A stretch of 3,907 nucleotides of DNA, from the sequence record DQ231594.1, one strand, 5' to 3'. Below are positions 3,062-3,375 of the stretch, in pieces (the stretch's first letter is position 1; each line of letters starts with the position of its first letter). Under the pieces are notes generated by a model. That model saw nothing but the letters and a program-made list of their open reading frames with translations, ran no database searches and had not been told where the DNA came from. Source of the stretch: Phage 258-320. The position numbers were made by a program, and so were the translations under genes.

Positions 3062-3098
3062 AAAAAAAACCGCCAGCGACAGGAATGGACGCTGGCGG
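3062..3098 (-). terminator. Intrinsic terminator oriented for the minus strand, abutting the nanS-p stop codon
   Basis: Seen directly: 9-bp stem CCGCCAGCG (3070-3078) / CGCTGGCGG (3090-3098) with an 11-nt loop. On the + strand it is preceded by A8 (3062-3069) and followed by the U-poor TGGTGATACC. On the minus strand this reads hairpin then U8, a canonical terminator. It may also act as a 3' stabilising hairpin for the + transcript. Confidence 0.55.
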
Positions 3099-3167
3099 TG
3101 GTGATACCTATGGAGAAAAAATAAAGGAACGATACTTTCGTACTCTGGTTTTTAATGAAAACAGTTC

Positions 3168-3183
3168 TTATTGTCAACAATAA
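3168..3183. repeat. Perfect inverted repeat TTATTG-TCAA-CAATAA just upstream of a small membrane-protein gene; candidate operator or promoter element
   Basis: Seen directly: TTATTG (3168-3173) and CAATAA (3178-3183) are exact reverse complements separated by 4 bp. The element contains TTGTCA on the + strand and a perfect TTGACA on the minus strand (3177 to 3172). Confidence 0.5.
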
Positions 3184-3195
3184 CGGAAAGAAATT

Positions 3196-3375
3196 ATGAC
3201 ATTTCTGAACCAGTTAATGCTGTACTTCTGTACGGTGGTCTGTGTGCTGTATCTCCTTTCGGGTGGGTACAGGGCAGTGCGCGATTGCTGGCGCAGGCAG
3301 ATTGACAAAAGGGCCGCTGAGAAAATCAGCGCCGGTCAGTCAGCCGGAAGCAAACCCAAAGAGCCGCTCATTTAG
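3196..3375 (+). CDS. Small single-pass membrane protein (59 aa), hypothetical
   Basis: Not in the supplied ORF track (below its length cutoff). ATG 3196 is preceded by GGAAAG (3185-3190) at 5-nt spacing; stop TAG at 3373-3375. Translation MTFLNQLMLYFCTVVCVLYLLSGGYRAVRDCWRRQIDKRAAEKISAGQSAGSKPKEPLI: about 20 hydrophobic residues, then a basic stretch (positive-inside pattern). Same strand as neighbours. Confidence 0.45.
   Translation: MTFLNQLMLYFCTVVCVLYLLSGGYRAVRDCWRRQIDKRAAEKISAGQSAGSKPKEPLI

Follow-up and report, generated by a model that had tools for sequence, protein, structure and literature searches.

Esr41 is a validated Hfq-dependent small RNA (sRNA) of the island SpLE1 of enterohaemorrhagic Escherichia coli (EHEC), which pairs directly with chuA, cirA, and bfr to repress them and has an influence on colicin sensitivity, motility, and the LEE island (PMC5286369, PMC9002310, PMC9387321); repression of chuA takes place at its ribosome-binding site, as confirmed by compensatory mutations (PMC5286369, PMC9002310). 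In enteropathogenic E. coli (EPEC) E2348/69, RNA interaction by ligation and sequencing (RIL-seq) and Northern analysis have revealed PasC (79 nt) and PasA (85 nt, with a minor form of 236 nt), both encoded on the strand opposite an esterase gene, Northern-confirmed, and Hfq-dependent (PMC8550237 table S6). Here we describe a cassette related to these RNA genes in a stretch of 3,907 nucleotides from Phage 258-320 (sequence record DQ231594.1; hereafter the window), which represents the late region of a Shiga toxin 2 (Stx2)-converting lambdoid phage with all its listed genes on the plus strand. The cassette occupies the minus strand between a nanS-p type sialate O-acetylesterase gene and the gene for a small membrane protein with the DUF1378 domain. 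It is probable that it constitutes a self-contained Esr41-like sRNA gene, equipped with its own promoter and terminator and antisense to the late operon, whose product would act in trans with Hfq. Judged from its sequence, the cassette is a new and apparently unnamed addition to the Esr41/Pas class of prophage sRNAs.

The cassette is homologous to Esr41

In a permissive scan, the Rfam model of Esr41 (RF02676; EcOnc14) aligns over its full length (1-74/74) with positions 3138-3062 of the minus strand, with an E-value of 0.0096. The reciprocal search agrees with this result: a covariance model (R1) built from 11 alleles of the present locus recovers the true Esr41 gene of SpLE1 (comparison locus L084, 1046-1121) with 28.6 bits and an E-value of 7e-4 in 95 kb or 1.7e-4 in 22 kb, both E-values being rough because the calibration was shortened. 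When the whole cassette, from the -35 box to the T run, is aligned globally with the Esr41 locus, z is 8.3 relative to shuffles. For these comparisons pairwise and covariance-model alignments were used, MAFFT having misplaced the -35 box and the Esr41 terminator. The similarity is bounded by the -35 box on one side and by a point just beyond the terminator on the other, indicating that the unit that moved is a promoter-to-terminator module.

Both cassettes follow the same plan of about 110 nt, consisting of TTGACA, an A/T-rich -10 element without the final T, a start 30 nt from the -35 box, a 4-bp 5' hairpin, the single-stranded CU-rich seed UUUUCUCCAU, a small hairpin, a GC-rich terminator of the form CGCC(A/G)GC..GCUGGCG, and a tail of U7-8, followed by ATCA. 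They also share the core of the seed, the part of Esr41 that is predicted to pair with the chuA ribosome-binding site. On the other hand, they differ in the 5' third (CGAAAGUAUCGUUCC versus GAUGCUCUAGGCAUC) and in the seed flanks (AUAGG versus AUGGGG in Esr41), so that the affinity for targets may differ as well. Moreover, Esr41 lies in SpLE1, whereas the present cassette lies in the late region of a Stx phage beside nanS-p.

The terminator and the promoter were the starting point of the original prediction, which had described a hairpin with a U8 tract on the minus strand only, right at the nanS-p stop, and farther to the right a minus-strand TTGACA, a 17-nt spacer, and a weak TAAAAA; each of these elements is found exactly where it had been placed (Table 1). 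Read on the plus strand, A8 (3062-3069) is followed by CCGCCAGCG (3070-3078), an 11-nt loop, CGCTGGCGG (3090-3098), and then TGGTGATACC. A repeat search lengthens the arms to 10 nt (3069-3078 and 3090-3099, 100% complementary), and the U tract ends 2 nt short of the nanS-p stop codon TGA (3058-3060). With its GC-rich stem followed directly by the U tract on the minus strand, the hairpin has the form of an intrinsic (Rho-independent) terminator. A terminator scan, whose limit on loop length is below the 11 nt found here, caught no more than an inner sub-hairpin. Covariance analysis lends the hairpin modest support: the inner stem pairs change in a compensatory manner across alleles (C-G to U-G to U-A, and G-C to A-U), and on a model-fitted alignment 92.6% of the cells pair and five pairs show double changes, whereas the outer 7 bp never vary and are therefore uninformative on structure.

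The conservation of the stem, which is the most conserved part of the cassette, could also be taken to mean that the hairpin alone matters, either as an insulator against stray leftward transcription into nanS-p and stx or as a stabilizer at the 3' end of processed nanS-p mRNA, with TTGACA being incidental. The plus-strand mRNA can form the same hairpin, and further perfect TTGACA hexamers occur in the window by chance. However, all alleles have the U tract on the minus strand, the -35 box keeps a constant distance and an unchanged sequence even among alleles with wholly different bodies, and the Esr41 cassette of SpLE1 carries the same promoter-to-terminator unit with no esterase gene nearby. 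A function confined to the hairpin thus appears very improbable.

For the promoter, the combination TTGACA-N17-18-TAAAAA has a single occurrence in the window and none in 200 shuffles. In sigma-70 terms, it has a perfect -35 hexamer, a 17-nt spacer, and a -10 hexamer with A at position 2 and without T at position 6; a generic promoter scan is silent on the site, since its rule needs the T at position 6. The 5' ends of Esr41 (taken from the Rfam model), PasC, and PasA (both taken from RNA-seq coverage) all fall exactly 30 nt downstream of the final TTGACA base (1018 to 1048 in locus L084 for Esr41, 2440 to 2410 in L002 for PasC, and 2630 to 2600 in L001 for PasA). By the same rule, transcription of the present cassette is predicted to start at 3142/3141, and the covariance-model matches begin at 3141 (R1) or 3138 (Rfam Esr41). 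The -10 boxes of the related genes, namely TAAAAA, TAGAAA, TATATA (Esr41), CAGAAA (PasC), and GAAAAA, all have A at positions 2 and 6 and never T at position 6. The weakness of the -10 element is therefore a family trait and by itself no argument against function. The TTGACA/TA(A/G)AAA pair, on whose conservation in related phages the original prediction had staked itself, is indeed kept there. The palindrome around TTGACA is real, with 7-nt arms, but is not kept outside its own allele group, which makes its function doubtful. A sigma-28 promoter was considered and rejected: GCCGATGA or CCGATAT precedes the start in some alleles, which do not include that of the window, and no TAAA box lies at the right distance.

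The predicted RNA itself also looks like an sRNA. Folding of the 80-nt minus-strand RNA gives -22.5 kcal/mol, and none of 200 shuffles is as stable (z = -5.0). Its 5' hairpin pairs AAAG with CUUU, as against GAUG with CAUC in Esr41, and 87% of the cells are paired, which is modest support. The block UUCUCCAU, common to Esr41, is the best conserved besides the terminator; a U-rich stretch precedes the seed, and a small hairpin lies between the seed and the terminator. A U-rich stretch, a single-stranded seed, and a strong terminator with U8 make up the standard layout of Hfq-dependent sRNAs. The minus-strand RNA of about 80-95 nt, running from about 3142 to 3062, that had been proposed from the letters is strongly supported by homology and synteny, in clear contrast to the toxin-antitoxin role added to it (see below).

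Three minor observations concern these signals. Among near-identical phages (L004-L083), the A run in the -10 region (3149-3154) varies from 5 to 7 and the U tail (3062-3069) from 6 to 8, and slippage in either run could alter promoter spacing or terminator strength. In locus L096 (NZ_CM165881.1), the terminator loop on the minus strand is reverse-complemented, reading GCAGGAATGGA in place of the usual TCCATTCCTGC with the stem unchanged, presumably owing to a flip of the hairpin by recombination inside the inverted repeat. Finally, the upstream arm of the terminator and its flank (TATCACC-ACC-GCCAG at 3090-3108, plus strand) resemble the operators of phage lambda, of which OR1 reads TATCACCGCCAGAGGTA and OL1 reads TATCACCGCCAGTGGTA; the V2 allele (L087) has 13 contiguous matches (CACCGCCAGAGGT). 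This resemblance may be due to chance.

The position is shared with PasC and PasA

PasC and PasA lie in the gap that separates the SASA esterase gene from the lysis genes, on the opposite strand, with a 3' end at the esterase stop; by the genome record, PasC ends 2 nt past the stop codon and the minor PasA form ends at it or 1-2 nt from it, which corresponds to 3058-3069 of the window. The present cassette thus has in common with PasC, PasA, and their EHEC homologues EcOnc51/52 the slot between the esterase gene and the holin or lysis genes, the orientation antisense to the late operon, and the flanking nanS-p-type esterase gene. It also shares with PasC and PasA a TTGACA promoter at equal distance, the terminator core GCCAGCG..CGCUGGC, and the U7 tail. 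In contrast, the RNA bodies and seeds are unrelated, the seed of PasA (GCCAGCACCU) being placed in a terminator arm, and the loci of PasC and PasA often contain two tandem cassettes without the DUF1378 gene. In agreement with this, R1 found no match to PasA, PasC, or the proximal copy in loci L001, L002, L085, and L086, and the alignment of the PasC locus with the window cassette (z = 6.0) draws mostly on the promoter and terminator. EcOnc52, a cluster from crosslinking and analysis of cDNA with Hfq (Hfq-CRAC), covers the equivalent site in the Sakai prophage Sp4, which has only the stop-proximal cassette.

Two tandem cassettes, each with TTGACA and its own terminator, fill the esterase-holin gap in the EPEC prophage PP2 (L001, 2354-2660) and in Sakai Sp12 (L086, 1400-1680), and strain GE3 (L098, 423-800) has a similar second cassette. 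The 236-nt minor form of PasA fits a transcript that begins at the distal gene and reads on to the proximal terminator. A preprint (10.64898/2026.05.13.724894) gives the gene order of Stx phages as esterase, PasA/PasC, and holin, and reports frequent hits of the Esr41 covariance model near PasD, upstream of the esterase gene; these hits are probably the present element. AsxR and AgvB, together with EcOnc27/STnc100 (Tree 2014), are likewise short Hfq-type sRNAs with their own promoters and terminators in the late region of Stx phages, where they form convergent pairs at a lambdoid moron site, some of them being antisense to the late operon as is the window cassette. They are, however, on the opposite side of the esterase gene, and AsxR is an sRNA sponge (Tree 2014).

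A total of 159 phage records, 933W and VT2-Sakai among them, carry the region 3030-3230 with an identity of at least 99%, and 979 of 5426 complete E. coli genomes (about 18%) contain a match to the cassette, with a median of two copies; in Sakai it is found at two places. The Sp5 copy of Sakai is listed in Table 1. Alleles were collected from 80 IMG/VR loci with DUF1378, to which 12 more from phages and E. coli were added. Together they yield more than 20 distinct minus-strand cassettes, in which five blocks are kept while the segments between them differ, sometimes wholly: TTGAC[AT]; TA(A/G)AAA 17-18 nt farther on; CGAAAG at the 5' end; UUCUCCAU; and CCGCCAG..CUGGCGG with U6-8 at the esterase stop. 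Besides the window and Esr41, R1 matches the divergent V2 group (42.8 bits), a GE3 allele (33.6 bits), and a group of about 100 nt (20-26 bits). This last, third type of cassette, present on the minus strand upstream of DUF1378 in L012, L018, L056, L062, L072, and L074, has TTGACA-N17-TAGAAA, a 5' hairpin CACCG..CGGUG, and a long-loop terminator (GCCGCCAGCA..UGCUGGCGGC); a comparison with named sRNAs found no link for it. The allele series shows the esterase-lysis junction to be a slot in which promoter and terminator stay fixed while the sRNA body between them is swapped (PasA/PasC-like, Esr41-like, or the type of about 100 nt), and it should be useful for the study of sRNA evolution on mobile elements.

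Antisense pairing and candidate targets

The closeness of the cassette to the DUF1378 gene had suggested a type I toxin-antitoxin layout, a proposal that geometry, pairing, and co-occurrence all fail to support and that we reject. As in hok/sok, tisB/istR-1, and ibs/sib, a small RNA gene in antisense orientation stands beside a short hydrophobic open reading frame (ORF); unlike in those systems, there is here no overlap with the start region or specific pairing, no separate toxin promoter, no obligate co-occurrence of RNA and ORF, and no match to an Rfam antitoxin family. The 5' end of the sRNA lies 55 nt upstream of the DUF1378 start codon, overlapping neither the ORF nor its ribosome-binding site. 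The best duplex predicted at the DUF1378 start region reaches -8.6 kcal/mol, against a mean of -10.1 kcal/mol for shuffles, and is worse than 69% of them. Pairing with the starts of DUF1378, DUF826, the ORF at 3765, nanS-p, and stxB was in no case above shuffled controls. A promoter scan of the window predicted no plus-strand promoter for DUF1378, and the Rfam scan returned no antitoxin RNA family. Homologous cassettes occur without DUF1378 in EPEC PP2, Sakai Sp12, strain GE3, and SpLE1, some of them adjoining a holin gene.

The RNA could still serve as a cis-antisense regulator, or as a type I antitoxin acting on the late transcript, and control DUF1378 or the lysis genes through, for example, RNase III cleavage or transcriptional interference. 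It matches 80 nt of the late transcript in perfect antisense, at a distance of 55-134 nt ahead of the DUF1378 start, the two units are transcribed toward each other, and DUF1378 encodes 59 residues with a hydrophobic N-terminus; some type I systems do pair far upstream of the start codon. Nevertheless, the geometry and the chance-level pairing described above, the lack of a predicted DUF1378 promoter and of an Rfam antitoxin match, the existence of homologous cassettes beside a holin gene or in SpLE1 without DUF1378, and the fact that the relatives of this RNA work in trans with Hfq leave such a role quite improbable.

We therefore return to the Esr41-like sRNA gene acting in trans as the preferred reading. 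In the predicted mechanism, the cassette would be a "moron" that brings a promoter and a terminator of its own and lies, oriented opposite to the late operon, between nanS-p and the DUF1378 and lysis genes. Its sigma-70 promoter (perfect -35, weak A-rich -10) would start transcription at about 3142/3141, and the intrinsic terminator would stop it at 3062-3069, yielding an RNA of about 80 nt. This RNA would be made in lysogens and act in trans with Hfq, its UUCUCCAU seed pairing with Shine-Dalgarno/AUG regions and thereby blocking translation, with the mRNA of the haem receptor chuA as the leading candidate target. During lytic growth, its perfect complementarity to the nanS-p-DUF1378 late transcript may bring about a secondary effect in cis; such an effect at induction is possible, but the data are explained without it.

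The proposal of chuA follows from the seed, whose complement, AUGGAGAA, lies in the chuA ribosome-binding region, the chuA start region of Sakai being UUUUCCUCAUGGAGAAUCGCUAUG. The longest perfect complement to chuA is 8 nt for the present allele, 9 nt for Esr41 (12 nt with one G-U pair), 9-10 nt for one group of other alleles, and 12 nt (GAUUCUCCAUGA) for the V2 group. This series suggests chuA as a common target, with a match that outreaches the shared core in several alleles, and chuA remains the leading candidate for the allele of the window, though not an established one.

Several points weigh against the preferred reading. The Rfam Esr41 score of 29.5 bits is far under the 102-bit gathering threshold and also contrasts with the 108.6 bits that the same model gives to the true Esr41 locus (L084, 1048-1121). 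The -10 box is without the conserved final T, and the site is not called by the generic scan. Covariation is thin, since so much of the stem is invariant. The chuA match extends over only 8 contiguous nt, and the U-rich stretch by chance matches other A-rich starts over greater lengths (for example, 11 nt for yhjC); in addition, the pairing register of Esr41 with chuA that is used here is our own prediction, not one taken from a paper. Lastly, the Sakai Hfq-CRAC list (Tree 2014) contains Esr41 and EcOnc51/52 and not the Sp5 copy, and low or conditional expression or a silent paralogue is a real possibility for the Sp5-type copy.

These points bear on the strongest competitor, a silent or decaying paralogue that descends from an Esr41/Pas-type gene but has a promoter too weak to give more than little or no RNA, its conservation merely reflecting the recent ancestry of Stx phages. 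Hfq-CRAC calls nothing at the Sp5 copy, with Esr41 among the most abundant RNAs; the -10 element fails the scan rule, that of Esr41 being better (TATATA); the A run in the -10 region is indel-prone (5-7 A); and most phage records are at least 95% identical, leaving little time for decay. Three observations argue the other way. Alleles at 77-85% identity retain the -35 box, TA(A/G)AAA, the seed, and the terminator despite changes in the segments between them, PasC and PasA are confirmed by Northern analysis despite an equally poor -10 (CAGAAA or TCAGAA), and the cassette is carried by the 979 genomes mentioned above. On balance, we consider a silent paralogue unlikely.

Esr41 has so far been treated as a single, EHEC-specific sRNA of SpLE1 concerned with iron and haem uptake, colicin sensitivity, motility, and LEE. 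If the present cassette is expressed, strains such as Sakai hold extra Stx-phage copies with the core seed of Esr41, the interpretation of esr41 knock-outs is affected, and one more host-directed regulator is tied to the toxin phage. A broader proposal, which at present we hold to be doubtful, is that about 18% of the complete E. coli genomes and the Stx2 phages carry an unrecognised Esr41 paralogue. In lysogens this paralogue would act on chuA and related receptors and so adjust the uptake of haem and iron by the host, together with AsxR, a phage sRNA that de-represses the haem oxygenase chuS; through redundancy it would also mask the phenotypes of esr41 deletions and, on induction, may cut or pause the late transcript between nanS-p and the lysis genes.

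Gene context and further observations

The features of the cassette and its neighbours are collected in Table 1.

Table 1 Features of the window and the Sakai Sp5 copy of the cassette
Feature	Position	Strand	Remarks
stx2B	30-299	+	first in the gene order of the window
STnc100/EcOnc27-type sRNA (sRNA103-type)	375-590	+	downstream of stx2B; Rfam STnc100 153.8 bits; terminator 559-578
nanS-p type sialate O-acetylesterase gene	1165-3060	+	Pfam DUF1737, SASA, DUF6645; stop TGA 3058-3060
Predicted Esr41-like sRNA, about 80 nt	3142-3062	-	Rfam Esr41 29.5 bits; R1 100.6 bits (3141-3062); fold z = -5.0
U8 tail (terminator; likely Hfq-binding 3' end)	3069-3062	-	6-8 U in relatives, minus strand only
Terminator hairpin, 9-10 bp stem, 11-nt loop	3070-3098	-	arms 100% complementary; stem kept in all alleles
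Putative seed UUUCUCCAU (anti-Shine-Dalgarno and AUG)	3118-3110	-	single-stranded, mean unpaired probability 0.86
Weak 5' hairpin AAAG/CUUU	3138-3123	-	from the Rfam alignment; within conserved 5' block CGAAAG (3140-3135), invariant in 11 alleles
Predicted transcription start	3142/3141	-	30 nt past the last -35 base
Weak A-rich -10 element TAAAAA	3154-3149	-	17-nt spacer; without final T
-35 hexamer TTGACA	3177-3172	-	TTGAC[AT] invariant in every allele class; aligns with the -35 boxes of Esr41, PasC, and PasA
Palindrome TTATTGT-CA-ACAATAA, centred on the -35 box	3168-3183		7-nt arms, 16 bp
DUF1378 small membrane-protein gene	3196-3375	+	Pfam DUF1378, E 2.9e-37; PHROG 494 (function unassigned there)
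DUF826 gene	3416-3688	+	
ORF running off the window end	from 3765	+	position of the holin gene in Sakai Sp5
Sakai Sp5 copy of the cassette (NC_002695.2)	about 1272087-1272165	-	identical except U7; 98 bits with R1

Known sRNAs of Stx phages do not account for the site: the sequence of AsxR, the convergent partner of STnc100/EcOnc27 in Sakai Sp5, was not found in the window, and no EcOnc coordinate of Sp5 coincides with the cassette at 3062-3142. HnrS (EcOnc10-12) lies about 5 kb past the AsxR-like site in Sp9 and would hence belong to another slot, and sRNA110 of Gruber and Sperandio, going by its number, would be placed farther downstream. Two ORFs across the region (2938-3180 on the minus strand and 3085-3183 on the plus strand) were dismissed as spurious, as they cross the hairpin and their sequence is unconserved in other alleles. 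The literature under the locus tags L0105, L0106, z1467, and ECs1210 contained nothing relevant, and a search of the genome contigs with the DUF1378 protein as query gave no relatives.

The sequence ATATCTGCAGAATTCGGCTTCCCGGATCC at positions 1-29, which abuts the ATG of stxB and contains PstI, EcoRI, and BamHI sites, we take to be of cloning-vector or primer origin; the record would thus be a cloned PCR fragment whose 5' end is not native phage DNA. At 3363-3379, across the stop codon of DUF1378, lies another hairpin, GCCGCTCATTTAGCGGC, which the terminator scan reported for either strand, with weak T runs on each side. In Sakai Sp5 (L003, 2439-3748), IS629 interrupts the nanS-p homologue ECs_1207, and the downstream sRNA cassette is intact.

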